A DNA stretch of 64,000 bases from Desulfobaccales bacterium (GTDB taxonomy: Bacteria; Desulfobacterota; Desulfobaccia; Desulfobaccales; 0-14-0-80-60-11). A program made the position numbers and the translations under genes. The stretch covers positions 1,856-65,855 of the forward strand of contig JBBFLF010000002.1 of assembly GCA_037481655.1 (NCBI GenBank), in the 5' to 3' direction. Under the pieces are notes generated by a model. The model saw only the letters and a program-made list of their open reading frames with translations. It did not search any database and was not told where the DNA came from. This document shows, piece by piece, positions 19,296-47,800 of this stretch (position 1 is its first letter; each line of letters opens with the position of its first letter).

Positions 19296-20620
19296 TCACC
19301 TCCCCCCACGACTGCCGGCGCCGGCTCCGGACCGGCCTTGGCGAATTGGGCCATGAGATAAAAGGCAATGAGCCCCAACAAACCATATACCACCAAAAAG
19401 GCCGCCAAGGTCACCCCCACCTGGCTGGCGGCGATGGGGGAGACCGCGTCCTTGGTCTTCATCAGGCCGTAAACGATCCAGGGCTGGCGCCCCACCTCGG
19501 TGACGATCCAGCCGGCCTGCAAGGCGATGTAGGGCAGGGGGATGGCATAGAGCATCACCCGCAAGTATAAGGGGTTGACGATGAGCCGGTCCCGCAGCAG
19601 CCAGCCGATGCCGGTGAGGAGGACAAAGAGGAAGCCCAGGCCCACCATCACCCGGAAGGCCAAAAACGTCAGGAGCACCGGCGGCCGCTCCTCCTTGGGG
19701 AAGTCTTTGAGGCCCTTCACCACCGCCTGGGAGTCGTGAAAGGCGAGCAGGCTCAGAAGCCCGGGAATCCGGCCGATCTCCACCAAGTTGCGTTCGTTTT
19801 TCTCATCCGGGATGAGAAACAGGGTCTGGGGGGCGCCGGCCTGGGTCTCCCACAGGGCCTCCATGGCCGCCAGCTTGGTGGGCTGCAGCTTGGCCACCTC
19901 GGCGCCGTGGATATGGCCCTGCACCACTTCCGCCACCGAGAAGATGAGGGCGAAGATGAGGCCCAGCCGGAAGGATTTGGTGAAAAAGGAGACGTGCTGC
20001 TCCCGGAGGAGGTGATAGGCGCTCACGCCCATGACGAAGAAGCCGGAGAGGATGTAGGCGCCAGTTAAGGTGTGGAAGATGATCTGCCAGCCGAAGGGCT
20101 GGGTGATGATGGCCCAGAAATTCTCCAGCTCCGCCCGGCCGTTACGGATCACATAGCCCACCGGATGCTGCATCCAGGCGTTGGCGGTGAGGATCCAGAT
20201 GGCGGAAAGGTTGCTGGCCGCGGCCACCAGCCAGATGGTGAGGCAGTGCAGCCGGGGGGAGAGCCGGTCCCAGGTGAGGGCCCAGACCGCCACAAAGGTG
20301 GACTCCAGGAAAAAAGAGGTAGTGGCCTCGATGGCCAACAGCGACCCGAAGATGTCCCCCACGTATTTGGAGTAGCGGGACCAGTTGGTGCCGAACTGAA
20401 ACTCCAGGGTGATGCCCGTCACCACCCCCAAGGCGAAGTTCACCAGGAAGATCTTGCCCCAGAACCGGGCCTGACGCCGGTACTCCTCATTGCCGGTGCG
20501 CACATACTGCGTCTCCATGATGGCGATGAGGATGGAGAGCCCCAGGGTGAGAGGGACAAAGAGGAAATGGAAAAAGGTGGCCACGGCAAACTGCAATCGG
20601 GACAGCATCACCACATCCAT
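19292..20620 (-). CDS. cydA: Cytochrome bd ubiquinol oxidase subunit I
   Basis: SRLQFA...HFLFVP, GITLEFQFG, QPTKLAAME, EVGRQPW; short Q-loop type. Confidence 0.98.
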   Translation of the reverse strand: MDVVMLSRLQFAVATFFHFLFVPLTLGLSILIAIMETQYVRTGNEEYRRQARFWGKIFLVNFALGVVTGITLEFQFGTNWSRYSKYVGDIFGSLLAIEATTSFFLESTFVAVWALTWDRLSPRLHCLTIWLVAAASNLSAIWILTANAWMQHPVGYVIRNGRAELENFWAIITQPFGWQIIFHTLTGAYILSGFFVMGVSAYHLLREQHVSFFTKSFRLGLIFALIFSVAEVVQGHIHGAEVAKLQPTKLAAMEALWETQAGAPQTLFLIPDEKNERNLVEIGRIPGLLSLLAFHDSQAVVKGLKDFPKEERPPVLLTFLAFRVMVGLGFLFVLLTGIGWLLRDRLIVNPLYLRVMLYAIPLPYIALQAGWIVTEVGRQPWIVYGLMKTKDAVSPIAASQVGVTLAAFLVVYGLLGLIAFYLMAQFAKAGPEPAPAVVGGGE

Positions 20621-23695: not shown

Positions 23696-24826
23696 TCAGC
23701 TCAGGGCGATGTGCCTGATGGCCAGGCTCTGGAGGAGATCAACCTGCACCTGGATCCCCAGGCCGGGGCCAGTGAGGGGCGTGGCCAGGCCCTCCTCGCC
23801 GAAGCTGACCGGGGGTATTACCGGGTCCCGGGCCAGAAGATAGGGAGCCAGGGAGCCCTCCAAATAAGCCAACGGGCCGGCGCTGACGGCAAAGTGCCGG
23901 CCGGCGGCCGCCAGGATGCTGGTCTCCCCCACCTGACAGCCCAGCATCACGCCGATCCCGGCTTGCCGGGCCAGGCGGGCCAGCCGCCGGCTGGGCCCGA
24001 AGCCGCCGCATTTGGATAGGCGCAGGTTGAAGATTCGGCAGGCCCTGGCTTCGATGAGGTGGGTGGCGTCGGCCTCGGTGCACAGGGACTCATCGGCGAT
24101 CACCGGAACCGGAAGGGCCGCCTGCACCCGGGCCAGGCCGGCAATATCGTGTTTGGCCACCGGCTGCTCCACGGCGCTGAGGCGGAAAGGCAGTAATTCC
24201 TGCAGGCGGGCGAGGGCCTCCTCCGCCTCCCAGGCGCCGTTGGCGTCCACCCTGAGGTCCACCTCCCAGCCCAGCTCCCGGCGCACCTGGGCCAGGACCT
24301 CGGCGTCCGTCTCCTCCCCCACCTTCACCTTGAGGAAGCGCATGCGCCGCGCCTTCACCAGCTCCAGGAGGCGGGTGAGGCGCTCCCCGGGTCCCAGAGG
24401 CAACACGGCGCTGTAATACAGGGGGGTGGACTCCGGCAGGGGTCCCCACAGGCGGGCGAGGGGCACTCCCCAGGTGCGGGCGCCGGCATCCAGGAGGGCG
24501 GTTTCCAGGGCGCAGGCCGCGGCGGGGTGGCTGGCCGTCGCCGGCCCCAGGCGCTCGGCCAGACCGCCAAAGAGAGCCGAGGGACTGCCCCAGGCGGACC
24601 CCACCAAGCCGGGCCCCAGGGAGCCCTCCAGCAGGGCCAAAGAGGCGCTCAGGGATTCCCCGGTGACAAAGTCCCGGGGGATCCCTTCGCCAAAGCCGGT
24701 GACCCCGCCCATGGTGGTGACCCGCACCACCAGGCTGTCGGAATGCTGATAGGAGGCCAGCTTATGCCTGAAGGGGAACCGAAACGGCAACCTCAGGTGC
24801 CAGATATCCAGCCTCTCGATGATCAT
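23696..24826 (-). CDS. Enolase-superfamily enzyme (muconate-lactonizing / dipeptide-epimerase subgroup)
   Basis: KVKVG (KxK), metal ligands DAN / EQP / DES, RLSKCGG, GCQVGET. Confidence 0.85.
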   Translation of the reverse strand: MIIERLDIWHLRLPFRFPFRHKLASYQHSDSLVVRVTTMGGVTGFGEGIPRDFVTGESLSASLALLEGSLGPGLVGSAWGSPSALFGGLAERLGPATASHPAAACALETALLDAGARTWGVPLARLWGPLPESTPLYYSAVLPLGPGERLTRLLELVKARRMRFLKVKVGEETDAEVLAQVRRELGWEVDLRVDANGAWEAEEALARLQELLPFRLSAVEQPVAKHDIAGLARVQAALPVPVIADESLCTEADATHLIEARACRIFNLRLSKCGGFGPSRRLARLARQAGIGVMLGCQVGETSILAAAGRHFAVSAGPLAYLEGSLAPYLLARDPVIPPVSFGEEGLATPLTGPGLGIQVQVDLLQSLAIRHIALS

Positions 24827-25757
24827 GCGCGGCCTCAAGCTCTGCGGCAATCATGGCGCCGAATTTCTTCCATTGATACCACAGGGGCGGCTCTGCCAAA
24901 ACCGCTTTTTCCAGGATCGCCAGGCAGCGGGGACTCACCTGGGCCGCCTCCGCCGTGCCGGCCTCTGCTACTGGCGTGAGCCTTAAGGTATAGCGGCGGC
25001 CCCCCAGCCGGTGCACCAGGCCCATGACCACCGGCGCTCCGGAGCGCTTCTTGAGGAGTTCCAGGGTCTTGTCGCCGGGCAGACGGCTGTGGAGGAAGGT
25101 GACCTGCCCATGCTCCTGGGGCCGCCACTCGTCGAACTCGTCCGCCTCGGTGATGAGGATGCGGCCGGCCTTGAGGGCTTTCACCGCAGCCAGAAAGACG
25201 TTGCCGCTGGTGGCGTCGATGATGTCCATGCCCACCGCCTGGGCCCGCTGAAACAGGGTCTCCTTGAGGTGGTTGGTCTGGAAGCGGCAGATCATGGAGA
25301 CCGGATAGCCCTTCACCGCCAGGCAGCCGGGCAGAAACTCCACCGCCCCGAAGTGGCCGGTGACCAGGATGACCCCTTTGCCCTGGGCTAAGGCGGAGGT
25401 GAGCTCGGCTTCGCCGTCCAGGGAGATGCGTCGATCCAGGAAGCGCAGCAGGCGGGGGAAATGTGAATACGCGAGGAAGAGCTTTTCGTGGTAGTGATCG
25501 ATGATACCCTGGAAGATGCGGCGGATCAGCTTGCGGCCCCTACCCCGGCCGGAGTCTCTTCCCAGGACATGTTGGGCAGTGCGGCGGATCAGCCGCCTCT
25601 CTTTGGCATTGCACCAAAAATAGATGGTGCCCAAAAGGCCCAGATACCAGCGGGACAGGCGAAAGGGCAGGAGACGGAAGAGGAAAATATTCCCCCGGGC
25701 CTGGCAGAACTTGCTGAGACTGGTGAAACGCAGGCAGGACAGGATGTGGGACAACAT
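24762..25757 (-). CDS. Lysophospholipid / lipid A-type acyltransferase (LpxL/HtrB-like)
   Basis: GKGVILVTGHFGAVE (H-x4-E) motif; strong SD AGGAGG before ATG 25757. Confidence 0.82.
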   Translation of the reverse strand: MLSHILSCLRFTSLSKFCQARGNIFLFRLLPFRLSRWYLGLLGTIYFWCNAKERRLIRRTAQHVLGRDSGRGRGRKLIRRIFQGIIDHYHEKLFLAYSHFPRLLRFLDRRISLDGEAELTSALAQGKGVILVTGHFGAVEFLPGCLAVKGYPVSMICRFQTNHLKETLFQRAQAVGMDIIDATSGNVFLAAVKALKAGRILITEADEFDEWRPQEHGQVTFLHSRLPGDKTLELLKKRSGAPVVMGLVHRLGGRRYTLRLTPVAEAGTAEAAQVSPRCLAILEKAVLAEPPLWYQWKKFGAMIAAELEAAHDHREAGYLAPEVAVSVPLQA

Positions 25758-26103
25758 GGCAGGGTCCTCCTTTCTGATGGCCCCCCGACTCCGGTGAGGA
25801 ATAGTCTCTCCTCCCCTCCTCCCACCCGGAGGCAGAAGCCGGCACCCCCTCATGGAGAGGTGCAAATCTCATGCCCTCAGCTCTCAGGAAATGCCGCATA
25901 TGAAGAGAAAAAATTGCCGACGTGCCGCGGTAGCACCCCGAAAATGCCAGGGAAATGCTGATTAATATTTAAGGTTTTTCCTTAGATAAAAAGATGTTAA
26001 GCTAAAGTCAAGATAAAAATGCACTCTTTGAGTATTTTGCGGCGCGTCTAGGGCCCGCGGGGGCCCGGCCGGGGGAGGCAGGGGAGAAAAACCTTTCGCA
26101 GTG

Positions 26104-28788: not shown

Positions 28789-29439
28789 ATGATGGAGGAG
28801 AGAGTGGTGATTCCGGGCCCGGAGGTGACTTTGGAAGGCCGCTTCCAGGCCGGCCGGAGGGTGGGCGGCGTGGTGGTGGCCCACCCCCACCCCCTGTATG
28901 GGGGCACGATGGACAACAATGTGGTCTGGACCGTCCGCCAGGCCTTCGGGGCCCGGGGGGCTTCCACTCTCCGTTTCAATTTCCGGGGGGTGGGGGAGAG
29001 CACCGGCACCTACGGTCAGGGGGAGGGGGAGATCGACGATCTGCGGGCGGCTTTGGACTACCTCCATCAGCATGCCACCGCGCCCTATCTGGTGGTGGGC
29101 TACTCCTTCGGCGCGGCGGTGGCGGCCCAGGCCTTCCTTCGGGGCCTCAAGGGCGCCGCCGCCCTCCTCATCTCGCCCCCCATCGCCCTCATGAAGCTGG
29201 ATTTCCTCTCCCAGGTCCCGGGTCTGGAAGGCATTGTGGTGGGGGAATGGGATGACTTCTGCCCCTTGGCCGCCCTCTACGGCCTGATGGCGGGGCGCGC
29301 CGTGCCGGTGCCCATCGCGGTGGTGCCCCAGGCGGACCACTTTTTTGGCGGCCGGGAAGAGGCCTTGTTTCACCTGCTCCGGGACTTTCCCCTGCCCGGC
29401 TGGCCGGAAGCCGGCGCCCGCCCGGGGGCGGTGCATTAA
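28789..29439 (+). CDS. Alpha/beta-fold hydrolase (COG2945-like)
   Basis: HPHPLYGGTMDN, RFNFRGVGES, GYSFG nucleophile elbow, GEWDDF, ADHFF. Confidence 0.9.
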   Translation: MMEERVVIPGPEVTLEGRFQAGRRVGGVVVAHPHPLYGGTMDNNVVWTVRQAFGARGASTLRFNFRGVGESTGTYGQGEGEIDDLRAALDYLHQHATAPYLVVGYSFGAAVAAQAFLRGLKGAAALLISPPIALMKLDFLSQVPGLEGIVVGEWDDFCPLAALYGLMAGRAVPVPIAVVPQADHFFGGREEALFHLLRDFPLPGWPEAGARPGAVH

Positions 29440-29498
29440 CCGGCCGGGGCACCCCCAATCCCCATGCCAGACTCCAGCCCTGCAGGGAAGATGACTCC

Positions 29499-30653
29499 AT
29501 GACGCCCCCGTCTGTCGGCTCTGCCCCTTTCACCCCGCCCCGGGTGCTCATCGCGGCCTGGGAGCCGGCCTGTCTGCTCCCCATCTTCGGGGAGGCCGCC
29601 CTCACCCGGCTGGTGCGTCTGGCGGCTTCGGAGGGCTGTGCGGTCACGGTCCTCCTCACCCCGGAGTTGCGCGGGGCTTTAAGCCGCCGGCCCCGGGACG
29701 CCGGCATCGTGGTCTGGCGCCTGACCCCCCGGGAGGAGTTGCCGGAGGCCGCGGCCCAGGTGGGCGGGCATCCCCAGGAGCCCGTCCTGCTCCTGCCGGG
29801 CCACAGCGTCTGGGACCGCCGCAGTTTCCGCCGGGCGCTGGCCGGCGTGCCCGGTTCCTTAAGCGCCTTTCGCCTGGCGGCCGCCCAGGTGCCGGTGGCG
29901 TTGGAGGAATGGCGGGAGAAAGGCGTGCCCACTATAGAGGGCGGCCTCCCGGTGCTGCTGTCCCGGCCCGAGGACGCCCCGGCGGCGGAGGCGCGCCTGG
30001 TGGCGGCCCTGGCCGCCGCCACCCAGGAGAGCGACGGTTTTCTGGCCCGCTGGGTGGACCGGCCCCTGTCCCGGCGCCTCAGCCCCCGACTGGCGGCCTG
30101 GGGCGTGCCTCCCAACGCCGTCACCCTGGCGGGGGTGAGTATCGGCCTGGCGGGGGCTTTTTTGCTCGCCCTGGCGGTGTATCCGGCGCAGGTGGCGGGA
30201 GCGTTGCTCTTCTGGGCCGCGGTGGTGCTGGATGGGGTGGACGGCGAGGTGGCCCGCCTGAGCCTCAAGGAGAGCCGCTTCGGGCACTATCTGGACATCA
30301 TCACCGATAATCTGGTGCATGTGGGGGTGTTTGTGGGCCTTGCCGTGGGCTTGTATCGCCAGGCCCCCGACGCCCGCCACCTTTATGCCCTGGGCCTGCT
30401 GCTCATCGGCTTCGGCCTCTGTGCCCTGGCGGTGTATATGGTCCTGGGGCGGCAGGATCAGGCCGCAGAAGGCACCCCGGCAGAGCGCCTCATCACCGCC
30501 CTCAACAGCCGGGATTTCGCCTACTTAATCCTGCTTCTGGCTGTGGCGAACCGCCTGCACTGGTTTTTGTGGGGGGCGGCGGTGGGCACGTATGTCTTTG
30601 CCGGCCTGTTATTTACCCTCGGCCGCCGAGCCGACCGGGCCGGCCGCGCCTGA
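29499..30653 (+). CDS. CDP-alcohol phosphatidyltransferase with a degenerate N-terminal nucleotidyltransferase-like domain
   Basis: Signature DGVDGEVARLSLKESRFGHYLDIITD (DxxDGxxAR...GxxxDxxxD); PNAVT; N-terminal soluble region. Confidence 0.88.
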   Translation: MTPPSVGSAPFTPPRVLIAAWEPACLLPIFGEAALTRLVRLAASEGCAVTVLLTPELRGALSRRPRDAGIVVWRLTPREELPEAAAQVGGHPQEPVLLLPGHSVWDRRSFRRALAGVPGSLSAFRLAAAQVPVALEEWREKGVPTIEGGLPVLLSRPEDAPAAEARLVAALAAATQESDGFLARWVDRPLSRRLSPRLAAWGVPPNAVTLAGVSIGLAGAFLLALAVYPAQVAGALLFWAAVVLDGVDGEVARLSLKESRFGHYLDIITDNLVHVGVFVGLAVGLYRQAPDARHLYALGLLLIGFGLCALAVYMVLGRQDQAAEGTPAERLITALNSRDFAYLILLLAVANRLHWFLWGAAVGTYVFAGLLFTLGRRADRAGRA

Positions 30654-30793
30654 CGTGAACCGTTAGGGGCCCTTGGGCCTACGGGAAATAAAACCTCAGG
30701 AGTGGGGTAATGGAGGGTGGGGGTCTCCGATCCCTGTCCTTCTTCCAAAAGTAAGTGGAAACTGTATCATCATCATGGTAATGGGGGAATTCC

Positions 30794-31522
30794 TTGTCCA
30801 AAATTGACCCTTCTGTCTCTACGGTGGATTTAAGCCGGGTGAGAGGCGTGCTTTTCGACCTGGGGGGCACCCTGGACGGCGACGGCGAACATTGGCTGAA
30901 CCGCTTCTGGCTGCTGTATCAGAAGCACTTCCCGGAGCTGGGTTTTGAGGCGGTGAAGGCCGCCTTCTATCAGGCGGAAGAAGCCTGCCTCACCGACCCC
31001 CGGGTGGCTTCCTTCACTTTGCCCCGCCTGGTGGCCTACCACGTGGAGCGACAATTGGCCGCCCTGGGCTATCAGCCGGAGGCCGGGGAGAAGCTGGCCT
31101 GGGAATTCTTGGAAGGCTGCCGCCGGGTGATCCGGCGCAACGCCTATGTGCTCCGGGACCTGGCCCAGGACTACCGCCTGGGGGTGGTGACTAACGGCTA
31201 CGGTAACGCCTCCCTGCTCCTGGCCGGGGAGGCCATCGCCATCTGGTTTGCCGTCATTGTGGATTCTGCCCGGGTGGGGGTGCGCAAGCCCGACCCGGAG
31301 ATCTTCCGTCTGGCGGCCCGGGAGCTGGGCTTCCCGCCGGCGGAGGTGGTCTATGTGGGGGACTCCTACACCCAGGATATCCGGCCGGCCAAGGGGGAAG
31401 GCTTCATCACCGTGTGGCTCCGGAATGATCCCATGAACGCACCCCTGCCGCCGGATGCCGACCCCTCCCTGGCGGATTTTGTCATCCGCAGCCTGCCGGA
31501 ACTGGCGGGGCTCCTGCCGTGA
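30794..31522 (+). CDS. HAD-superfamily hydrolase (subfamily IA)
   Basis: FDLGGTLD motif I, VVTNG, RKPDPEIF, YVGDSYTQDI; TTG start. Confidence 0.88.
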   Translation: MSKIDPSVSTVDLSRVRGVLFDLGGTLDGDGEHWLNRFWLLYQKHFPELGFEAVKAAFYQAEEACLTDPRVASFTLPRLVAYHVERQLAALGYQPEAGEKLAWEFLEGCRRVIRRNAYVLRDLAQDYRLGVVTNGYGNASLLLAGEAIAIWFAVIVDSARVGVRKPDPEIFRLAARELGFPPAEVVYVGDSYTQDIRPAKGEGFITVWLRNDPMNAPLPPDADPSLADFVIRSLPELAGLLP

Positions 31523-32214
31523 AGGCGGGCATCATCGCCGCCGGGCTGGGAAGCCGCCTGGCCCAGGGGGGGATCACCGTGCCCAAGCCATTGGTGGAGG
31601 TGGCCGGCGACACCCTCATCGGCCGGGTCATCCGGGAGGCGGCGGCAGCCGGCGCTTCTGCCGTGGCCGTCATCACCACCCCCATCTACCCCCAGGTGGC
31701 GGCCTATCTCCGGGAGCGCCCGTGGCCGGTGCCGGTGGCGGTGCTGGAATGGGAAAGCCCCCATTCCCTGGCCAGCCTCCTGGCCTTGCGGCCCTATCTG
31801 GATGAGCCTTTTCTCCTCTCCACCGTGGATGCGGTACTGGCTTCGGGCGCTATGGCCGCCTTTGCCGCCCAGGCCCAGGGCCGTCCCGGCCTCGGCGCCC
31901 TGGGACTTACGCAGGACATTGATGACGAAAAGCCCCTGTATGTCAGCCTGGGGGAGAACGGGCGCATCCTGAGCCTCGGTCAGCGACCCAGCCCCTGGAT
32001 CACCGCCGGCTGTTATTACTTTGCGCCCCGGGTCTTTGACTATGAAACGGCGGCCCGGGAGCGGGGCTTGGGGGCCCTGCGCCAGTTTCTGGCCTTTCTG
32101 GTGGAGGCGGGGGAGATTTTGTGGGGGGTGGATGTGGGCCCGGCGGTGGATGTGGACCATCCCGAGGATATCGTCCGGGCGGAGGCTTTCCTGGCCGGGG
32201 GCCCAAAGGGCTGA
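31519..32214 (+). CDS. Nucleotidyltransferase (NTP_transferase; candidate CTP:inositol-phosphate cytidylyltransferase)
   Basis: IIAAGLGSRL...PKPLV, STVD, DVDHPED; GTGA overlap with the HAD stop. Confidence 0.87.
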   Translation: MKAGIIAAGLGSRLAQGGITVPKPLVEVAGDTLIGRVIREAAAAGASAVAVITTPIYPQVAAYLRERPWPVPVAVLEWESPHSLASLLALRPYLDEPFLLSTVDAVLASGAMAAFAAQAQGRPGLGALGLTQDIDDEKPLYVSLGENGRILSLGQRPSPWITAGCYYFAPRVFDYETAARERGLGALRQFLAFLVEAGEILWGVDVGPAVDVDHPEDIVRAEAFLAGGPKG

Positions 32215-32478
32215 GTGAGTGCCCCAAAATCACCCTTTCCTGGTGACAAGGGGCATCCTTCCTGATAAAAATCTCCATTTGTGGCCGGCAAGAGTATCAA
32301 GACAGGGGGCCCATTCCGGAGGAGCCGGCCTCCGGGGAACGGAAATCCCCTTCAATATAGGGATATTTTCCATTTTTCTCCATTGACCATGTGTTGGGAG
32401 AGAAGGTGGGATGAGGGGAAAGGAGGCCACCGCTCTTTGGCCCCTCTTTGGATTACATAAAAGCGGAGATGCCTCATC

Positions 32479-33309
32479 GTGGCCGGCCTCGCTCCTCCCC
32501 TGATCTACGGCATTTACCGGGAAAAAGCCCTGTCCCCGGGCAAGGTGGAGGCAGATGCCGCCATCTTGGAGGCCGTCCTAAGGGGCCTGGAAGCCCTGGG
32601 TTGCCAGGTGGCCACCCTGAGGGCCGACGCCTTGCCGGATGCTCCGCCGCCGGCCACCGGCTTCCTGCACCTGGCCCAGGGACCGGCCGCCCTGGCGCGG
32701 CTTTCTGCCTGGGAAGCCCAAGGGGCGCGGCTCATCAATCCGCCGCAGGCCGTCCGGCGCTGCTGGCGGCGCTCTCTGCCGGAGATCATGGCCCAGGCGG
32801 GGGTGCCCTACCCCCAGACCCGGTTATACACAACTGGCGAGGCCGAGGCACTCTTTGCCCAGGACTTCCCCGGCCCGGGCTGGCTGAAGCGGGCCGAGAT
32901 CCACGCCGAGGGGCCCGGCGACGTGGTGCAGGTGCATTCCCGGGAAGAGGCCTTGGCCGTGCTTGGGGATTTCCGCCGCCGGGGCATTGACGCCCTGGTG
33001 TGGCAGGAGCACCTCCCCGGCCGGGAGGTGAAGTTTTACGGCGTGGGGCCGGGCCGGTTCTTCTGGGCTGCCGCCCCAGGCGACCCCAAGCCCCTGTCCC
33101 CGGAGGCGGCGGCCCCGCTGGCTGACTTAGCGGCCCGGGCGGCCCAGGCGGTGGGGCTTAGCGTCTTCGGCGGCGACCTCATTCTGCGCCCTGACGGCCG
33201 CCCGGTGCTCATCGACCTCAACGACTGGCCCAGCTTTTCCCGCTGCCGGGAGGCTGCGGCCCGGGAGATAGTGCGATATGTCTGCGACGCCTTTCACCTC
33301 GACGCGTGA
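32479..33309 (+). CDS. ATP-grasp-fold protein of unknown function
   Basis: RLINPPQAV, GWLKRAE, WQEHLPGREVKFYGV, FGGDLI...LIDLNDWPSF (RimK/GshB-like ATP-grasp pattern). Confidence 0.75.
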   Translation: MAGLAPPLIYGIYREKALSPGKVEADAAILEAVLRGLEALGCQVATLRADALPDAPPPATGFLHLAQGPAALARLSAWEAQGARLINPPQAVRRCWRRSLPEIMAQAGVPYPQTRLYTTGEAEALFAQDFPGPGWLKRAEIHAEGPGDVVQVHSREEALAVLGDFRRRGIDALVWQEHLPGREVKFYGVGPGRFFWAAAPGDPKPLSPEAAAPLADLAARAAQAVGLSVFGGDLILRPDGRPVLIDLNDWPSFSRCREAAAREIVRYVCDAFHLDA

Positions 33310-34621
33310 CGAGCGGCCCCGCTCCCGGGAGCTCTTCCGGGCGGAGCTGCCCTTTTTGTCCCCCGGCTTCCAGAATGTGGCCCTGCTGGCCGAACTGGTG
33401 CTGGACCGGGGCGAGGGCCGCTACCTCTATGACCTGGACGGCAACCGCTACCTGGATTTCATGGCGGGTATCGGGGTCTGCTCCTTGGGCTACAGCCACC
33501 CCGCCTGGGTGGCGGCCATGACCGAGCAGATCCGGAAACTCACGGTGGGCAGTTTCGCCACCGTCAACCGGGGAAAATTCCTCAGGCGCCTGGCGGAGGT
33601 GGCCCCGGGGGACCTGAGCCAGACCATGCTCTACTCCGGCGGCGCCGAGGCGGTGGAGGCCGCCATCCGCCTGGCCAAGTCCTTCACCAAGAAATTCGAG
33701 GTGCTGGCCTTCTGGGGCGGCTTCCACGGCAAGACCGGCGGGGTGCTGGGCCTCATGGGGAGCACCTTCAAACACGGCTGGGGGCCCCTCCATCCGGGCC
33801 TATATCTGACGCCTTACGCCTACTGCGAGCGCTGCGCCTTCAAGCTCACCTACCCTTCCTGCGGCCTGCACTGCCTGGAGTTTGCCCGGGAGGTCATCCG
33901 CCTTAACACCACCGGCTCGCTGGCCGCCATCCTGGTGGAGCCCATCCAGGGCACCGCTGGCAACGTGGTGCCGCCGCCGGAGTTTCTCCCCGGGGTGCAG
34001 GAGATCTGCCGGGAGCACGACGCTCTTCTCATCGCCGACGAGATGCTCACCGGCTTCGGGCGCACCGGCCGGCTCTTCGGCTGCGAGCACGACGGGGTGG
34101 TGCCCGATGTCATCACCATCGGCAAGGGCATGGGGAGCGGCTTTCCGGTGAGCGGGCTCATCTCCACCCCCGGCATCATGCGGGCGGAGCCCTACTCCAA
34201 GCCCTCCGCCGCCTCCTCCAGCTACGGCGGCAACCCCCTGGCCGGCACCGCCGCCTGGATCACCCTGGAGACCCTGCTCAATGAAAACATTGTGGAGAAC
34301 GCCGCCCGGGTGGGGGATTATCTCCTGAAACGCCTGCTGGAGCTCCGGGAAAAATACCCCTTCATCGGCCGGGTGCAGGGCAAGGGCCTGATGATCGGGG
34401 TGGAATTCGTGCGCCACCGGGACCGGGACAAGACCCTGCTCCCCGGCAAGGTGATGGAGCAGGTCTTCAAGGAATCCCTCCGGCGCGGCCTCATCAGCAT
34501 GAATTACACCGCCCAGTACCGCATCAACCCGCCCCTCACCCTCACCGAGGCCGAGGCCGAGGAGGGCGTGGGGATACTGGACGAAGTCTGCGCCTGGCTC
34601 GCCCAGCAGAGCCAGCTTTAA
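33278..34621 (+). CDS. Class-III PLP-dependent aminotransferase
   Basis: GEGRYLYDLDGNRYLDF, SGGAEAVE, FHGKT, EPIQG, ADEMLTGFGRTG, IGKGMG (PLP lysine), GGNPL. Confidence 0.93.
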   Translation: MSATPFTSTRDERPRSRELFRAELPFLSPGFQNVALLAELVLDRGEGRYLYDLDGNRYLDFMAGIGVCSLGYSHPAWVAAMTEQIRKLTVGSFATVNRGKFLRRLAEVAPGDLSQTMLYSGGAEAVEAAIRLAKSFTKKFEVLAFWGGFHGKTGGVLGLMGSTFKHGWGPLHPGLYLTPYAYCERCAFKLTYPSCGLHCLEFAREVIRLNTTGSLAAILVEPIQGTAGNVVPPPEFLPGVQEICREHDALLIADEMLTGFGRTGRLFGCEHDGVVPDVITIGKGMGSGFPVSGLISTPGIMRAEPYSKPSAASSSYGGNPLAGTAAWITLETLLNENIVENAARVGDYLLKRLLELREKYPFIGRVQGKGLMIGVEFVRHRDRDKTLLPGKVMEQVFKESLRRGLISMNYTAQYRINPPLTLTEAEAEEGVGILDEVCAWLAQQSQL

Positions 34622-34628
34622 GGATTGC

Positions 34629-34815
34629 TGAGGGGAAGGCCGGGGGAGCGGCGGCTCCCCCGCCCAGGTAAGCCTTAAGGACTTGGGAGAGGGGGCTAGG
34701 GGTTGCGAACCCCTGCCCCCTCTCCCCAACCCTCTCCCCCAACCCCTTATGGGGGGTGGGGAGAGGAGTTTGAGGGGAGGGCGGGGGCCTATGGCCTCCC
34801 GGCCCTCCCCTCAAC
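34629..34815 (+). repeat. Palindromic intergenic repeat, copy 3 (34685-34815), preceded by an inverted half copy (34629-34665)
   Basis: GAGAGGGGGCTAGGGG...CCCCTGCCCCCTCTC...CCCCCAACC...TATGGGGGGTGGGGAG...TGAGGGGAGGGCGG...CCGGCCCTCCCCTCA matches copy 2. Confidence 0.8.
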
Positions 34816-34832
34816 AACTCGGATAAAGTAAC

Positions 34833-35870
34833 ATGGACTCCTCTAAAAAAAGTCCCTTCATTGGCGGGCTAATCGGCTTCGGCAAGGTGGCGGAGAAGGC
34901 CCACCTGCCAGCGCTGCAGGGCCTGCCGGGGTTCCGCCTGGGGGCGGTGGCCGAGCCCCTGCCGGCGCGTCGGGAGCTGGCCCGGGAGCTCCTGCCGGGG
35001 GTGCGGGTCTATGAGAGCCAGGCCGCCCTGCTGGCGGGCGAATCCTCCCTGGATTTTGTGGCCGTCTGTTCCCCACCCGCCAGTCACGTGGAGCTGGTCC
35101 GGGAGGCCCTTACGGCCGGCTGCCATGTGTTGTGCGAAAAGCCCCTGACGCTGGATCTCGCGGCCCTGGCCGGGCTGGAAAAGTTGTCCCAAGCCCACAA
35201 GCGGGCCCTGGTGACGGTGCACAATTGGAAGTATGCCCCCCTTTACCGGGCGGCCCAGGGGGCGCTTACGGACGGCCTCATCGGGGAGGTGCAGGAAATC
35301 ACCTGGGAGGTGCACCGCACCTCCACGAGCGGCGGCGGCCTCACGGACTGGCGCCACTCCGGTGCCGCGGCCGCCGGCGGGATTTTGGTGGACCACGGCT
35401 GGCATGCCTTTTATCTCCTCCTGGGTTTGGCGGGGGAGTTACCGGCAGTCCTGCGGGCGCATCTGACCCCGGCCCCGGCAAACCCCCAGGGGGTGGAGCA
35501 TGAGGCCGAGGTGGAGCTGCGCTTTCCCCGGGCCCGGGCGCGCCTTTTCCTCACCTGGCGGGCGAAAGTGCGGCTGAACCGCGGCCGCCTCCTGGGCACC
35601 GCCGGGGAGCTCCTCCTGGAGGATGACCGCCTGCTCCGGCGCCGTGATGGCCAAGTGGAGCTCGTGGCCGCCTTTCCCGAGAAACTGAGCGGCGGCTCCC
35701 ATCACCCGGAATGGACCCGGGGCTCCTGGGAGGAGTTCGCCGCGGAAATCCGGGACCCGGCCCTCCGGGGCCACAACCTCGCCGAGGCGGGCCACTGCGC
35801 CCGCCTCATCAGCCTGGCCTACCGCTCCCACGCCGCCGGCGGCGCCTGGCTTCCTTACCCTCCCGGATGA
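34833..35870 (+). CDS. Gfo/Idh/MocA-family oxidoreductase (inositol-dehydrogenase-like)
   Basis: LIGFGKVA Rossmann motif, CSPPASH, HVLCEKPL, GGILVDHGWH. Confidence 0.9.
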   Translation: MDSSKKSPFIGGLIGFGKVAEKAHLPALQGLPGFRLGAVAEPLPARRELARELLPGVRVYESQAALLAGESSLDFVAVCSPPASHVELVREALTAGCHVLCEKPLTLDLAALAGLEKLSQAHKRALVTVHNWKYAPLYRAAQGALTDGLIGEVQEITWEVHRTSTSGGGLTDWRHSGAAAAGGILVDHGWHAFYLLLGLAGELPAVLRAHLTPAPANPQGVEHEAEVELRFPRARARLFLTWRAKVRLNRGRLLGTAGELLLEDDRLLRRRDGQVELVAAFPEKLSGGSHHPEWTRGSWEEFAAEIRDPALRGHNLAEAGHCARLISLAYRSHAAGGAWLPYPPG

Positions 35871-36862
35871 AACGGCGCCCCGACCCGCACCTTCTGGCCG
35901 GGGCTTTGGGAGCCCTGGTGCTGGCCCTGCTGCTGTATCGCCTGGGCTGGGCCGAGGTGCTGGCGGAGCTGAAGCGGGTGGGCTGGGGCTGGGTCCTCAT
36001 CCTGGGCCAGGAAATCCTCCCCATCCTGGCCAACACCGGGGGCTGGCACTACACCTTCCTGAAAGAGGAGCGCCGGGTGCCCTTCGGGCGGTTGCTCCGC
36101 CTGCGCCTGGCCGGGGACGGCTTCAACTACCTCATCCCCAGCGCCACCGTGGGCGGGGAGCTGTTGCGCATCCACCTGCTGCGCCGGGAGATGGCCCTGG
36201 CGGCCTCGGCGGCCTCGGTCACGGTGGCCAAATTCACCCAGATGCTGGGACAGGCCCTGTTCATCGGCCTGGGGCTGCTGCTGGCGGCCCCCTTTGCCCC
36301 GTTGCGGCCGGGCCTGCTGCCGGTCCTCTGGGCCCTGCTTGTGGGCTGCCTCCTCTTGTTAGGGGTGGTGCTTTTGGGACTGAGATGGGGAGTCTTCTCC
36401 CGGCTCACCGGCCTGGTGGTGAGGTGGCTCCCCAGCCGCTTTAAGGGCTTACTGCCGGTGGACCAGGCCGCGGCTCTGGACCGGGACATTGCCGCTTTTC
36501 TGGGGAAGGATCAGCCCGCCTTCTGGCTCTCCGTGCTTCTCTTTGGCCTGGCCTGGGCGTTGGGCACGGTGGAAGTGCTCCTCATCTGCCATTTCCTGGG
36601 GGTGCCGGTGAGCCTGGCCACTGCGGTGACCATCGAGACCCTAAGCGTCTTCATTGACGGGGTGCTCTTTTTCGTGCCCGGGAAACTGGGAACTCAGGAG
36701 GGGGGCAAGGTGCTGATCTTCCTGAGCTTGGGGCTTCCCCCCGTTTCAGGGCTGGCCTTTGGCCTCATCCGGCGTCTCCGGGAGCTTACCTGGGCCGGCC
36801 TGGGGGTGGCCTGCCTCCTGACCTTCCGGGCAGAGGGGGCCCCATCAGGTTCGGGAAATTAA
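35867..36862 (+). CDS. UPF0104 / lysylphosphatidylglycerol-synthase TM-region membrane protein (HpnL-like)
   Basis: Multi-TM; NYLIPSATVGGE, FFVPGKLGTQEGG, LIRRLREL; ATGA overlap with the oxidoreductase stop. Confidence 0.82.
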   Translation: MKRRPDPHLLAGALGALVLALLLYRLGWAEVLAELKRVGWGWVLILGQEILPILANTGGWHYTFLKEERRVPFGRLLRLRLAGDGFNYLIPSATVGGELLRIHLLRREMALAASAASVTVAKFTQMLGQALFIGLGLLLAAPFAPLRPGLLPVLWALLVGCLLLLGVVLLGLRWGVFSRLTGLVVRWLPSRFKGLLPVDQAAALDRDIAAFLGKDQPAFWLSVLLFGLAWALGTVEVLLICHFLGVPVSLATAVTIETLSVFIDGVLFFVPGKLGTQEGGKVLIFLSLGLPPVSGLAFGLIRRLRELTWAGLGVACLLTFRAEGAPSGSGN

Positions 36863-36897
36863 TGTCCTCCCGCCTGGCCTTTCCCCCGCCCGCCAAC

Positions 36898-36929
36898 AAA
36901 AAAAACCAGGGTCATCCCCTGGTCTTTTT
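36898..36929. terminator. Bidirectional intrinsic terminator
   Basis: A8-CCAGGG-loop-CCCTGG-TCTTTTT between two convergent genes. Confidence 0.75.
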
Positions 36930-36966
36930 CCTCAGCCTCGATGGGGAAGCGATTCCCCGCGGCCCT

Positions 36967-38070
36967 CTACCGCTCCCGGATTCCTTGGATGAACTCCTCC
37001 ACCCGGCGGGCGGCCTCGTCATCGGGCATGGGCTCGGGCGGATGTTTCATGGTGTAGGCGGAAATACTGGTGAGGGGGCCGGCAATGCCCCGGTCCCGGG
37101 CCAGCTTGGCGCAGCGCACCGCGTCGATCATGCAGCCGCCGCTGTTGGGGGAGTCCTCCACCGACAGGCGCATCTCCAGGTGCATGGGGAAACCCCCAAA
37201 CCCCCGGGCCTCGATCCGCAAAAAAGCCACCTTGTTGTCCTGCTGCCAGGGCACATAATCCGAAGGGCCCACGTGCAGGTTGTTGGGCTCGAAGTCGGGG
37301 GGCAGAAGCGAGCTCACCGCTTCGGTCTTGGAGCGTTTTTTGGTGGCCAGCCGGTCCCGGTTCAGCATGTTGAGAAAGTCGGTGTTGCCCCCCACGTTGA
37401 GCTGGTAGGAGCGGTCCACCGTCAGGCCCCGCTTCTGGAAGAGGTGCACCAAAGTGCGGTGCAGGATGGTGGCCCCCAGTTGGCTTTTCACGTCATCCCC
37501 CACCACCGGGATGCCCGCGGCGGTGAAGCGGGCGGCCCAGTCGGGGTCGGAGACAATGAAGGTGGGCATGCAGTTGATGAAGCTGACCCCGGCCTCCAGG
37601 CAGCACTGGGCGTAGTAGCGGGCCGCCTCCTCGGAACCCACGGGCATGTAGTTGAGGAGCACCTCGGCGCCGGTGTCCCGAAGCACCTTAGCCACATCCA
37701 CCGGCGGGGCGTCGGCCACCACAAAGGTCTGCTCCGGCGGATATGTGGCCATATGGGGGGAGACGCCGTCCAGGACCGGGGCCATCTGCACCAGGACCGG
37801 AATCTCCGGCAGATCCGGAATGATGCGGTAGCAGCAGTTGGGCGGGGCAAAGATGGCCTCGGACACCGGCCGCCCCACCTTGCGGGCGTCGATGTCGAAG
37901 GCGGCCACGATTTCCAGATCCCCCGGCCGGTAGCCGCCGATCTCCGGATGCATCAGCCCCAAGGGCCAAGCGGCCTCCGGGTTGTGCCTGCGGCGATAGT
38001 ACTCAATCCCCTGCACCAGGGCACTGGCGCAGTTCCCCACTCCCGCGAGCGCGATCCTGATCTTTCCCAC
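36967..38070 (-). CDS. ino1: myo-Inositol-1-phosphate synthase
   Basis: AGVGNCASALVQG, NYMPVGS, GDDVKSQLGATI, QLNVGGNTDFLNM, SKTEAV, DSPNSGG. Confidence 0.96.
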   Translation of the reverse strand: MGKIRIALAGVGNCASALVQGIEYYRRRHNPEAAWPLGLMHPEIGGYRPGDLEIVAAFDIDARKVGRPVSEAIFAPPNCCYRIIPDLPEIPVLVQMAPVLDGVSPHMATYPPEQTFVVADAPPVDVAKVLRDTGAEVLLNYMPVGSEEAARYYAQCCLEAGVSFINCMPTFIVSDPDWAARFTAAGIPVVGDDVKSQLGATILHRTLVHLFQKRGLTVDRSYQLNVGGNTDFLNMLNRDRLATKKRSKTEAVSSLLPPDFEPNNLHVGPSDYVPWQQDNKVAFLRIEARGFGGFPMHLEMRLSVEDSPNSGGCMIDAVRCAKLARDRGIAGPLTSISAYTMKHPPEPMPDDEAARRVEEFIQGIRER

Positions 38071-44600: not shown

Positions 44601-44822
44601 GACTGGCACCTTCCTGAGCGAATGTCCTGGAGCACGTAAAGATTCCTGAGCCTTCTGCACTACTTTTCGAACTACTGGGCAAATCCCTTTAATTTGTGAC
44701 CGGTGGGCAGGGCCGGGGGAAAATGGCTCCCCTTCCGCTTTCGGGCCAACTTCGACCACGTCGCCCCGGCATTTTTGTGCTATGGTACGACAAACTCCGA
44801 CCTGAGTTCATGGGAGGGCGCC

Positions 44823-47800
44823 ATGGGTGCCGGTGGGAGAGGGCCAGGCCTGAGGGGCCTCCTGGGGATCACCCTGGGGGTGGTGTGGATGCTCATGGTG
44901 GGGGGCCCGGCGGCTGCCGGAACGCAGCCGGCACGCCCAGGGGGGCCTCCCGGCTTCGACCCGGAGAGGGAATTCACTGTGGTGGCCATCCAGCCGGAGG
45001 CGGCCAAAGGGGAGGTGCGCCTGGTCTTCAGCCACCCGGTCCCCAAAGAAGTATTGCAGGCGCACCTGAAGTTTCTCCCCCGCCTGAAGGTGGATTGGGG
45101 CGAAAGCCGCCTCAGTCCCGAGGGCGTCCTCACCCTCAAGGGCAGCTTCCGTTACGGGCGGCGCTATGCCGTGCACCTGCCGGAGGGCCTGGAGGTGGGC
45201 GGGCGGCGCTACCGGCAGACAGTGAGCCAGTTCTTTCTCCCAGATCGCCCCCCCTTCCTCGAATTCGTGGATGACAAAACCGTCCTGGAGAGGCAGAGCC
45301 GGCAGCTCTTCCATGTCCGGGCGGAAAATGCCGGGCCCCTGGAGGTGGAGGCGCTGACGGTGCCGCCCCTGCTGCTCGCCCCTGCCCTGGCCGCCCAGGC
45401 GCGGGGCCGGCCGCCGACTGAGCTTGCTGAGGAGCTGGGCGCCGCCCTGCAGGAACTCGGGCCCCTGGCGAAGCAGCGTCCCTTTGCCCTCTTCGCCGGC
45501 GAGGCGATGCTGGAAAAACAGCTCTTCGGGGTCACCCTGGACAAGAACCGCCTCCAGGCGGTCTCCCTGCCTCTCACCTTCCGGCGGCAGCATCAGGAAG
45601 GGGGCCTGGTCTATCTCCGGGTTAAGAACGCCGGGCCGGGCGACTCCGCCACTTCGCCCCGTCTCTTTCGCCTCACCGACCTGGGCCTCACCTACAAGCG
45701 GGGCCAGGGGGGGCTCTTGGTCTGGGCCACCTCCCTTAAGGAGGGCCGGCCGCTGGCCGGGGTCCAGGTGCTGGCCTGCACCCGGGACTTCCAGGTGTTT
45801 CCCCTGGGAGAGACGGGCCCCGACGGCGTCCTGGTCTTCCCGGGCCGGGAGCTGGCGGGCCTCAGTCTGGCGCGGCAAGGCGCCTTCGCCCGGGTCAGCC
45901 GCCGGGTGGATCCAGGGGAGGTGGCCTTTCTCTTGGCGGGCAAAGAAAAGGATTGCACCTATGTGGAGGTGCGCCCTCGGGGGGATATGAAGCCGGCCGA
46001 GGTATGGCAGGAGCCCCTCAACGGCATGGTCCCTCCGCAACGGGGGCATCTCTTCACCGAGCGGGGCGTGTATCGCCCCGGGGAGACGGTCTATTTCAAA
46101 GGCACGGTGCGGGAATGGCGGGAGGGCCGCATCGTCGCCCCGGCCGGGGGCCGGGTGACGGTGAGCGCGGTCAATCCCAAGGGCGAGAGCCTCCTGGACA
46201 CGGAGCTTACCCTGTCGGAATTCGGTACCGCCGCGGGTGAGTTCCGCCTGCCGGGCCACAGCCCCTTGGGCACCTACACCCTGACCATGCGCTTCGGCGC
46301 CGAGGCGGCAGAGAGCCCAGGGGAGGAGGAGCCTGACAACGGGAACCACCCCCGGCGGCCCCGGGAGGAGGCCAAAACCACTTTTGAGGTGCAGGAGTTC
46401 ACTCCGCCCCGCCATTTCGTGGAGCTGGATTTCTCCCGGCACACCCGGGAGCTCCCGGAATATGTGGGCGTGACGGCCAAAAGGGAGTTCGTCCAGATCA
46501 GGATCAGCGGCCATTATTATGCCGGCGGGCCGGTGAAAAACGGGCAGGTGCGCTGGAAGATCTCCCGGGCCAAAACCTCCTTCCCCCAGGCGGAGCGGCC
46601 GGGATTCACCTTCGGCTATGACGAGGGGCGGCGGGAGGAGCTCATCGAGGCGGGGCAGGCCCTCCTGGATGAACACGGCCGGGCCGAGATTTCCTTTCCT
46701 CTGGACCAGGCGGTGCTCACCGGACGCCAAGGATTGCTGGTGATGGCCACGGTGCTGGACTTCGACGGCCGGGCCGCCTCCCACAGCCGCACCTTCCAGG
46801 TGGAGCCGGAGGTGCTATTGGGCCTCAAGCCCCCTGCCGGCCCCGTGCGGGTAGGGGGGGAGCTCAGGGTCGGGGTCATGGCGCTGCGTCAGGGGCGGCC
46901 GCTGGCTGAGGGCACCCTGCAGGCCGAGATCTTCACCGAAGGCTGGAGCTATGTGGCCAAGCGCAATGAGCAGGGGGATCTCTACTGGGATGACCAGCAG
47001 GTCTGGCGGCGGCTGAGCCAACAGAGCCTCCGCCTCGTCAAGGGGGAAGCGGTCTTCGCCACCGGAGTGGCCCACGGGGGACAATACCTGATATCGGTGA
47101 GCTATCGGGATCCCGCTGGCCGCACCTATGCCGCGGCGCTGCCGGTGTCGGTGGAATGGGCCTTCGACGATGAAGGCCGGCGCAAACGGCCGGTTCCTTA
47201 TCATCCCCTGACCCTGGCCGCCGACCGGGCCGCCTATGAGCCCGGCCAGACGGCAAGACTCTTCCTGAGCTCCTCCCGGCCGGTGAGCCACTATCTGGTC
47301 ACCGTGGAGCGGCAGGGGGTCATGCAGCACCGGGTGGTGGCCGCCAGCGGCCCTTCCCAGGAGCTGGAGCTCCCCATTTTGCCGGACTTTGCCCCCAATG
47401 TTTACGTGTCCGTCCTGGGCCTTAGTCCCCGGGGGGACTTCCCCCTGTATTCCGGCGCCTATGACGCCGAGGCCCCGGGCTGCCTCTGGGCCAATGTGAA
47501 CCTGCCGGTGCGCCTGCAGGTGGAGGGGCTCAAGGTGGCCATCGCGGCGGAGCGCCCGGAGCTCAAGGCCGAACCCGGCCAGAGCTTCACTCTGGACCTG
47601 CAGGTCACGGGGGCGAAGGGGAAGGGCGCGGAGGCCGAAGTGGCGCTGGCCGTGGTGGATGAGGCGGTTTTAGCCCTCACCGCCTACAAAACCCCCACCC
47701 TGGAGTCCCTCCTGCGCTTCGATCTGCCGCTGAGGGTCAGCACCGGGGATCTCAGGGCCCTGCTCCTGCACCAGACCCCCTTCCGGCTGGCCCGAAGCGA

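Follow-up and report, generated by a model that had tools for sequence, protein, structure and literature searches.

What does a bacterium make with a dehydrogenase of the Gfo/Idh/MocA family and a class-III aminotransferase whose genes lie among genes of inositol metabolism? The question is raised by a locus in a 64,000-nucleotide stretch of DNA from Desulfobaccales bacterium (assembly GCA_037481655.1, contig JBBFLF010000002.1, positions 1,856 to 65,855; the whole stretch is hereafter called the window), in which the gene for the aminotransferase (AT3) is followed by the gene for the dehydrogenase (GFO). An original prediction, made from the sequence without database searches, had described the two genes as an add-on to a cluster around ino1, the gene for the inositol-phosphate synthase MIPS, and had proposed an amino-inositol (inosamine) as the product. 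We found that AT3 and GFO belong to the core of a gene module that is conserved across at least nine phyla. We propose, giving the idea about an even chance of being right, that the pair carries out the amination step of an uncharacterized module that makes a CDP-activated phospho-aminocyclitol for a membrane transferase.

To collect AT3 loci, one genome per GTDB species was scanned with an alignment of AT3 orthologues, which returned at least 80 loci at 50-96% identity. The window proteins were mapped to these loci by tblastn, and all open reading frames (ORFs) were clustered. Counts refer to 81 AT3-seeded loci among the matches listed, and "full" loci are the 51 in which AT3 is flanked on either side by 7 kb or more. 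The genes for a HAD phosphatase, a nucleotidyltransferase (NTP transferase), an ATP-grasp protein, AT3, and GFO, usually accompanied by a CDP-alcohol transferase gene, follow one another in a conserved order. This order recurs in at least nine phyla (Thermodesulfobacteriota, Binatia, Acidobacteriota, Methylomirabilota/Rokubacteria, Gemmatimonadota, Ignavibacteria/Bacteroidota, Elusimicrobia, Nitrospirae, and Myxococcota). Among the 51 full loci, the HAD gene is present in 44, GFO and the CDP-alcohol transferase gene in 42 each, the ATP-grasp gene in 38, the NTP transferase gene in 36, and a gene for a flippase-like membrane protein in 26. AT3 and GFO occur together in 57 of the 81 loci, with a gap of 300 bp or less in 33 and of 300-1,500 bp in 15; where the gap is of the latter size, the CDP-alcohol transferase gene usually lies in between. 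The same module order was obtained from two look-ups seeded with GFO homologues of 42-43% identity. Because the linkage is tight and recurrent across loci and reappears in the GFO-seeded look-ups, we conclude that the AT3-GFO pair is the core of a widespread module and not a local add-on. The description of the pair as an addition to an ino1 cluster therefore has to be reversed: HAD, NTP transferase, ATP-grasp protein, AT3, and GFO form the core, and ino1 is a variable neighbor. The module was also recovered in the isolate Desulfoferrobacter suflitae and in a metagenome-assembled genome of Binatia, and homologues that share 58% or more of their residues with AT3 are plentiful in metagenomes, with Syntrophobacterales, Deltaproteobacteria, and Binatia as source names.

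In the window, the module lies within positions 28789-38070, which hold eight codirectional genes and one convergent gene. Family calls were made with Pfam and NCBIfam models, whose scores were compared with the curated cut-offs.

28789-29439, + strand: alpha/beta hydrolase, at the head of the plus-strand run (Pfam Hydrolase_4, Abhydrolase_6, and Abhydrolase_1 at 28-31 bits)
29499-30653, + strand: CDP-alcohol phosphotransferase with an N-terminal extension of about 190 amino acids (Pfam CDP-OH_P_transf, 48.9 bits)
30794-31522, + strand: HAD-IA phosphatase (Pfam Hydrolase, 60.8 bits; HAD_2)
31519-32214, + strand: NTP transferase (Pfam NTP_transf_3, 46.9 bits)
32479-33309, + strand: ATP-grasp protein (AlphaFold2 model, pLDDT 95.1)
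33278-34621, + strand: class-III aminotransferase AT3, 447 amino acids (Pfam Aminotran_3, 334.5 bits, E = 1e-99)
34622-34832, no strand: G/C-rich palindromic spacer of 211 bp between AT3 and GFO
34833-35870, + strand: Gfo/Idh/MocA dehydrogenase GFO, 345 amino acids (GFO_IDH_MocA, 68.6 bits; GFO_IDH_MocA_C3, 56.4 bits)
35867-36862, + strand: flippase-like LPG_synthase_TM protein, HpnL-like, 331 amino acids (PF03706, 112 bits)
36967-38070, - strand: MIPS/ino1, convergent (Pfam Inos-1-P_synth, 120.4 bits; TIGR03450, 440.8 bits against a cut-off of 638)

The side-by-side arrangement of the aminotransferase and dehydrogenase genes inside the cluster, as originally described, agrees with these assignments, and so does the coupling of the dehydrogenase gene to a membrane protein gene. 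The latter is literally true, because the TGA stop codon of GFO (35868-35870) overlaps the ATG start codon of the flippase-like gene (35867-35869) in a shared ATGA. The start of the NTP transferase gene likewise overlaps the stop of the HAD gene by 4 nucleotides. The word "adjacent" fits AT3 and GFO as neighboring genes, but in the window the 211-bp spacer parts them. It contains at least three imperfect G/C-rich palindromes, and its segments 34770-34786 and 34798-34814 are complementary at 94%. An Rfam scan of the whole window, spacer included, matched no family, so the spacer corresponds to no known riboswitch or other RNA. In many other loci the spacer is missing, and AT3 and GFO abut or overlap there. 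A terminator-like hairpin (36905-36923) is located 3′ of the flippase-like gene.

AT3 is a class-III, fold-type I enzyme that uses pyridoxal 5′-phosphate (PLP). The PF00202 match covers residues 40-436 at a cut-off of 30.5 bits, and every one of the 71 aligned sequences keeps both the Schiff-base lysine (K283) and the aspartate that pairs with the pyridine nitrogen (D254). AT3 scores under every NCBIfam equivalog cut-off, at about half of each, the putrescine-aminotransferase model included (GabT TIGR00700, 272.9 against 506.65 bits; ArgD TIGR00707, 273.2 against 410.05 bits; OAT TIGR01885, 222.9 against 378.4 bits). Its active site carries a signature found in all 69 AT3 orthologues (69/69 for each element). 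R415, which corresponds to GabT R398 and holds the α-carboxylate of the amino-acid co-substrate, is kept, and K152 of an FHGKT motif stands at the site of the arginine that binds the distal carboxylate (R141 in Escherichia coli GabT), where the aligned GabT 3q8n has YHGRT. GTAG is present in place of GEGG. Four invariant cysteines (183, 186, 195, and 199; window positions 33824-33874) form the motif C-x2-C-x8-C-x3-C, which neither the paralogues nor the aligned solved homologues 9wqz and 3q8n possess and which could be a structural zinc or iron-sulfur site specific to this subfamily. Paralogues found in the same loci are 32-33% identical to AT3 and lack its signature. Judged from its sequence, AT3 is a genuine class-III enzyme that forms an orthologue group of its own, outside the characterized subfamilies.

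GFO belongs to the Gfo/Idh/MocA family (PF01408 with PF22725/PF02894; 68.6, 56.4, and 27.0 bits, all above the cut-offs). Its catalytic residues, in the EKP motif (E102-K103-P104) and the D187-x3-H191 motif, are invariant in 38 homologues, and its AlphaFold2 model (pLDDT 92.2) superposes on family members at a TMq of 0.8. The fold neighbors are GFOR, an inositol dehydrogenase homologue of A. vinelandii solved with myo-inositol, glucuronide 3-dehydrogenase, KanD2/GenD2, and scyllo-inositol dehydrogenase. Because this set mixes inositol, glucose, glucuronide, and aminoglycoside dehydrogenases, the fold search gives no specificity. The model is compatible with a dehydrogenase acting on a secondary alcohol of either a cyclitol or a sugar.

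A possible dependence of AT3 on a partner of this kind can be gauged from loci that depart from the usual order. In Binatia-type loci, GFO is located 2-7 kb from AT3, beside a TetR gene and HpnH/hopanoid genes, and the genes directly after AT3 encode a HAD-IIIA phosphatase resembling GmhB and an LLM oxidoreductase that depends on F420 (TIGR03619, 243 bits, above the cut-off). Examples of this arrangement are L019, L025, L026, L028, L029, L046, L047 (12147-13019), and L024 (2454-2963), among others. Because an LLM oxidoreductase follows AT3 where GFO is distant, these loci suggest that AT3 requires some oxidoreductase partner. In some loci of Acidobacteria, Myxococcales, and Gemmatimonadota, AT3 is found without its usual HAD, NTP transferase, and ATP-grasp neighbors. 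A gene for a B12-binding radical SAM protein of about 443-486 amino acids lies divergently beside the CDP-alcohol transferase gene in 19 of the 51 full loci (Binatia-type loci L018-L053, e.g., L021, 4832-6163, - strand; also L001, 6238-7698, and L085, 16361-17719). Its identification as HpnJ was rejected (82.8 bits against a cut-off of 577.6).

What the pair might act on is indicated by the genes around it. MIPS is encoded within 10 kb of AT3 in 19 of the 81 loci (14 of the 51 full loci). The short actinobacterial/archaeal type of the window accounts for nine of these, and a long NAD_binding_5 type of about 454 amino acids (NAD_binding_5, 359 bits; Inos-1-P_synth, 110 bits) accounts for the other 10. 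Given that two distantly related types of MIPS have been recruited, we argue that the link to inositol is functional. The NTP transferase finds its best solved relatives, over its full length, in the CTP:inositol-1-phosphate cytidylyltransferases 2xme (E = 7.9e-7) and 4mnd (E = 2.1e-6), and it is a putative CTP:inositol(amine)-phosphate cytidylyltransferase. The best solved relative of the CDP-alcohol transferase is the IPCT/DIPPS protein of A. fulgidus (4mnd; E = 1.1e-14, interfacial helix included), followed by AF2299, and its architecture, with a cytoplasmic N-terminal extension, resembles that of DIPPS and AF2299. Its top three NCBIfam models are DIPPS (70.9 bits), archaetidylinositol-phosphate synthase (57.8 bits), and PIP synthase (49.4 bits), all below the cut-off and all describing enzymes that use inositol phosphate. 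Against the IPCT/DIPPS model NF041135, whose cut-off is 580 bits, the NTP transferase scores 40.6 and the CDP-alcohol transferase 70.9 bits. As these scores are all far below the curated cut-offs, they place the two proteins in the neighborhood of the IPCT/DIPPS type and do not make them members of it. MIPS, the NTP transferase, and the membrane transferase thus point, independently of one another, to inositol phosphate, and the inositol context of the original prediction is strengthened accordingly by the two MIPS types and by the nearest relatives of both transferases. Two different CDP-alcohol phosphotransferases are encoded in many loci (L003, L013, L014, L023, L045, L054, L055, L078, and L086); one of them, a 423-amino-acid protein in L003 (6404-7675, - strand), has an NTP-transferase-like N-terminal domain and was not called in the source annotation.

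The ATP-grasp protein, of which the original prediction took no account (nor did it consider the recurrent hopanoid and Mla neighbors described below), could be either an ITPK-like kinase or a carboxylate-amine ligase. In a Foldseek search, ligases of the LysX/ArgX/RimK type and maize ITPK1 rank equal (TMq 0.70-0.75). The best solved match of the family profile is ITPK4 (7pup; E = 2.3e-5), confined to the C-terminal Mg/ATP motif D-L-N-D-W-P-S-F, and a Pfam scan of the individual members placed no family over the threshold; 3 of the 41 members hit PF05770, with E ≥ 0.16. In an exhaustive search, homologues of the protein formed 621 clusters at 50% identity (E ≤ 1e-10). Ten long homologues were checked: seven are fusions of an NTP transferase with an ATP-grasp domain, one is a HAD-NTP-grasp triple fusion of 802 amino acids (P0412), and one is a grasp-HAD fusion (P0479); the remaining fusion proteins are P0363, P0399, P0405, P0422, P0454, P0459, and P0475. 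The NTP transferase is N-terminal to the ATP-grasp domain in 8 of the 10. In another protein, P0481, the ATP-grasp domain is fused to a PAS histidine kinase. The natural fusions tie the HAD, NTP-transferase, and ATP-grasp activities together. Because they resemble the kinase/phosphatase/nucleotidyltransferase logic of nucleotide-sugar activation, a kinase role for the ATP-grasp protein is modestly favored by analogy.

Several neighbors of the module are proteins of the cell envelope. The flippase-like protein scores well above the PF03706 cut-off of 33.4 bits, and its HpnL score (TIGR03476, 150.7 bits) lies below the cut-off of 195.65. In Ignavibacteria/Bacteroidota versions of the module (L032, L057, L059, L061, L068, and L083, at about 4-9 kb), the lipid-transport genes mlaE, mlaF, and mlaD are located between the NTP transferase and ATP-grasp genes. 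Genes for MlaC and an outer-membrane efflux protein (OEP) lie beside Thermodesulfobacteriota/Syntrophobacterales versions, and YhdP, PagL, and HpnN-like genes neighbor the module in other loci. Stretches bearing Mla or OEP genes include L001 (13499-15720) and L086 (4082-6400). Hopanoid genes occur within 10 kb in 21 of the 51 full loci (HpnA, 509 bits; HpnH, 379 bits; HpnK, 317 bits, all above the cut-offs; also an HpnN-like RND transporter and SHC). Loci with hopanoid neighbors are L012, L013, L016, L017, L019, L025, L026, L028, L029, L046, L047, L049, L055, L062, L065, L069, L075, L079, and L084, among others, and polyprenyl synthase and Dxr genes are also found among neighbors of this type. 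A search of the window itself found no hopanoid genes, so the hopanoid link comes from the other loci only. From this distribution, a hopanoid polyol could be the acceptor of the module. The neighbors do not single out one acceptor, and the phospholipid of the original prediction is accordingly a candidate product. Taken together, the flippase coupling, the Mla genes, the MlaC, OEP, YhdP, and PagL neighbors, and the hopanoid neighbors lead us to favor an envelope or membrane product over a soluble solute of the di-myo-inositol-phosphate (DIP) type.

The limits of the module in the window are less sharp at its 5′ side. The alpha/beta hydrolase gene is also present in two close relatives (L005 and L087), and in L086 an Abhydrolase gene is located 3′ of the CDP-alcohol transferase gene; whether the hydrolase gene of the window belongs to the module is uncertain. 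Genes for sensor kinases and response regulators lie on both sides of the cluster. Just upstream of the sensor kinase gene at its 5′ side are a gene resembling those of lipid A biosynthesis acyltransferases and a gene of the enolase superfamily (MR/MLE; 24762-25865 and 23696-24850, respectively, both on the - strand). The window also encodes cytochrome bd oxidase subunits I and II (18267-20620) and, 3′ of a PAS/GAF sensor kinase, a very long ORF of 1742 amino acids (44703-49931, + strand).

The proposal of a CDP-activated phospho-aminocyclitol is based on the observed synteny, family neighborhoods, active-site signatures, and fusions. From these we infer that the substrate is a cyclitol, that the steps follow the order given below, that the ATP-grasp protein acts as a kinase, and that the product is a lipid. 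In the proposed pathway, GFO would oxidize one ring hydroxyl to a ketone with NAD+, and AT3 would convert the ketone to an amine, giving inosamine, with the amino-acid donor held by R415. It would fall to the ATP-grasp protein, HAD phosphatase, and NTP transferase to put the phosphate in the right position and to turn the product into a CDP-alcohol. The DIPPS-like CDP-alcohol transferase would then join the phospho-aminocyclitol to an acceptor alcohol, and the MprF-type flippase-like protein might carry the resulting product across the inner membrane.

A number of observations weigh against this proposal. GFO is not an IolG orthologue (TIGR04380, 60.5 bits against a cut-off of 355) and is distant from every characterized inositol dehydrogenase (its best PDB matches reach 57-68 bits), and its fold neighbors include dehydrogenases of non-cyclitol sugars. 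The dehydrogenase-then-aminotransferase logic of the original prediction stands as far as the gene pair is concerned, AT3 and GFO being reciprocally and tightly linked across the phyla listed above, with oxidation of a cyclitol by GFO as a prediction. Enzymes of the DIPPS type yield a soluble solute and not a lipid. To our knowledge, the known inosose aminotransferases are of the DegT class and not of class III. Pairs of PF01408 and PF00202 genes are about twelve times rarer than pairs of PF01408 and DegT genes, and, of the 1,236 PF01408 genes counted near class-III aminotransferase genes, none is characterized there (PMC10949010). The similarity to IPCT/DIPPS is weak (E = 1e-6 for the NTP transferase and 1e-14 for the CDP-alcohol transferase) and far under the NCBIfam cut-offs, and the fold of the ATP-grasp protein matches ligases as well as ITPK. 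In about 73-77% of the loci, no MIPS gene is found within 10 kb, a figure that describes gene neighborhoods only. In the reverse direction, among 80 metagenome loci seeded with the window MIPS, 42 of them long, the module was found in 1 of the 42, namely, in the 87%-identical relative. MIPS thus does not predict the module, and the link is one-way: the co-occurrence of the pair with ino1 is seen in a minority of loci from the side of AT3 and almost never from the side of MIPS.

Because most neighborhoods lack MIPS, the substrate may be sought elsewhere. In the kanosamine route (NtdC/NtdA/NtdB), a hexose phosphate is processed by a dehydrogenase of the Gfo family together with an aminotransferase and a HAD phosphatase. 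By the same logic, GFO and AT3 might aminate a hexose phosphate or an acceptor polyol such as the side chain of a bacteriohopanepolyol, the inositol phosphate being a separate part of a composite molecule. This is an explanation that we consider unlikely, although several points agree with it: GFOR, glucuronide 3-dehydrogenase, and KanD2/GenD2, all fold neighbors of GFO, use sugars; hopanoid genes are frequent near the full loci; and the flippase-like protein is HpnL-like, the function of HpnL itself being unknown (bioRxiv 10.1101/2025.07.29.667474). HpnO, which makes aminobacteriohopanetriol, has moreover been described as an aminotransferase-family protein (PMC12583986). However, no hopanoid gene is linked to AT3 nearly as tightly as the HAD, NTP transferase, and ATP-grasp genes are, and three separate enzymes indicate inositol phosphate. 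Given that MIPS and hopanoid genes are both missing from the vicinity in 22 of the 51 full loci, the neighborhood alone does not decide this point.

The nature of the product, as opposed to its substrate, is at issue if the module makes a soluble compatible solute of the DIP type, possibly aminated, instead of a membrane lipid. The gene set classically needed for DIP consists of MIPS, IPCT-like and DIPPS-like enzymes, and a phosphatase. For both the NTP and the membrane transferase, the closest solved relatives are the IPCT and IPCT/DIPPS structures of A. fulgidus; the membrane transferase has a DIPPS-like cytoplasmic N-terminal domain and interfacial helix, and a phosphatase gene (HAD) is rarely missing from the full loci. 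We nevertheless regard a DIP-type solute as quite improbable, since GFO is translationally coupled to a flippase-like membrane gene, Mla genes lie inside some versions of the module and MlaC, OEP, YhdP, PagL, and HpnN-like neighbors beside others, and many loci encode two different CDP-alcohol transferases. DIP is known from hyperthermophiles, whereas the hosts of the module are mostly mesophilic soil and sediment bacteria. Hardly credible, finally, is the idea that the pair lies near inositol genes by chance, with GFO as an unrelated dehydrogenase of sugars and AT3 as a standard aminotransferase for GABA, ornithine, or acetylornithine. It would explain the source annotations ("4-aminobutyrate aminotransferase-like" or "aspartate aminotransferase family") and the presence of GabT enzymes, at about 35% identity, among the best solved relatives of AT3. 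It is contradicted by the synteny, which, with AT3 proteins 50-62% identical, persists in nine or more phyla. The GabT, ArgD, and OAT equivalog scores, all well under their cut-offs, and the lysine that replaces GabT R141 in every orthologue, within a signature that the paralogues lack, likewise contradict a GABA or ornithine enzyme, one of the outcomes named in the original prediction as overturning it.

Searches of the literature on inosamine or aminocyclitol lipids, on bacterial CDP-inositol, and on the combination of the four enzymes found no description of the module or of an inosamine lipid, in line with the earlier statement that no characterized example was known; a search for lipid data on D. 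suflitae also found none. Tentatively, and at somewhat less than an even chance, we propose a new class of bacterial envelope molecule with a phospho-aminocyclitol (inosamine) head group, made by an eight-to-nine-gene module that is spread over at least nine phyla of soil and sediment bacteria, most of them uncultured, and includes an ITPK-like kinase and an aminotransferase with a four-cysteine metal site. If this proposal is correct, CDP-inositol chemistry would extend to an amino-cyclitol head group, which, bearing an amine, would alter membrane charge much as lysyl-phosphatidylglycerol does, and which could sit on diacylglycerol, on ceramide, or even on a hopanoid polyol. Inositol lipids were long thought to be rare in bacteria; their pathways are only now emerging, and the "alternative" route through CDP-inositol is still unconfirmed. 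The lineages that host the module (Binatia, Methylomirabilota, Acidobacteriota, Gemmatimonadota, Thermodesulfobacteriota, and Ignavibacteria) dominate soils and sediments, and a large share of the intact polar lipids of these lineages is unidentified. The module also offers candidates for the role of HpnL-like flippases, for bacterial ITPK-like kinases, and for a class-III aminotransferase that acts on a cyclitol. As a cultured host exists (Desulfoferrobacter suflitae DRH4), the prediction is directly testable.

Among known systems, the closest in amination chemistry is the aminocyclitol branch of hygromycin A biosynthesis, to which the streptidine and rhizopine routes are analogous. Its proposed route leads through Hyg18 (MIPS), Hyg25 (phosphatase), Hyg17 (a PF01408 inositol dehydrogenase), and Hyg8 (aminotransferase) to neo-inosamine-2 (PMC10949010). 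Both systems combine MIPS, a phosphatase, a Gfo/Idh/MocA dehydrogenase, and a PLP aminotransferase, and conversion of inositol to inosose and on to inosamine is proposed for both. All four of these enzyme classes are encoded in the window, the cyclitol specificity of GFO and AT3 being predicted only. Unlike the hygromycin A genes, which form an actinomycete antibiotic cluster, the module described here resembles primary metabolism and is found in Gram-negative environmental phyla. Its aminotransferase belongs to class III and has its own signature, GFO is an orthologue of neither IolG nor Hyg17, and a membrane transferase and a flippase-like protein would receive the product in its CDP-activated form.

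In activation chemistry, the module resembles the CDP-inositol pathway of IPCT/DIPPS, with which it shares, by gene type, MIPS, a putative cytidylyltransferase, a CDP-alcohol transferase with a cytoplasmic N-terminal domain, and a phosphatase. It differs in that the similarity is weak (the NF041135 scores given above), the putative cytidylyltransferase is encoded by a separate gene, the hosts are not hyperthermophiles, and the ATP-grasp, AT3, GFO, and flippase-like genes are additional. A further parallel is the putative "alternative" inositol-lipid cluster of Bacteroides vulgatus and Prevotella, for which a Kennedy-like CDP-inositol route was proposed but is biochemically unconfirmed (Heaver et al. 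2022; PMC9246714). By gene type, that cluster also contains MIPS, an NTP-transferase-domain protein, a CDP-alcohol phosphatidyltransferase, and a HAD hydrolase, with a lysyl-phosphatidylglycerol-synthase-like gene nearby. It lacks a dehydrogenase, an aminotransferase, and an ATP-grasp gene, whereas the module described here has all three.

Other parallels are by analogy only. ADP-heptose synthesis (HldE/GmhB) follows the logic of a kinase, a HAD phosphatase, and a nucleotidyltransferase, and both this system and the kanosamine route use the enzyme-class combinations seen here. The HAD-NTP-grasp fusions mirror the coupling of the heptose enzymes, and the GmhB-like HAD-IIIA gene added in Binatia-type loci recalls the ADP-heptose set. 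In contrast to these systems, the kinase here would be of the ATP-grasp type and not ribokinase-like, the aminotransferase is of class III and not of the DegT class, and the substrate differs. The flippase-like protein shares its transmembrane domain with MprF and its overall likeness with HpnL, but, unlike MprF, it has no synthase domain for aminoacyl transfer, and its likeness to HpnL stays below the family cut-off. As we read it, the module would combine the known CDP-inositol pathway with inosamine chemistry, and there is a realistic chance that it defines a new class of envelope head group.

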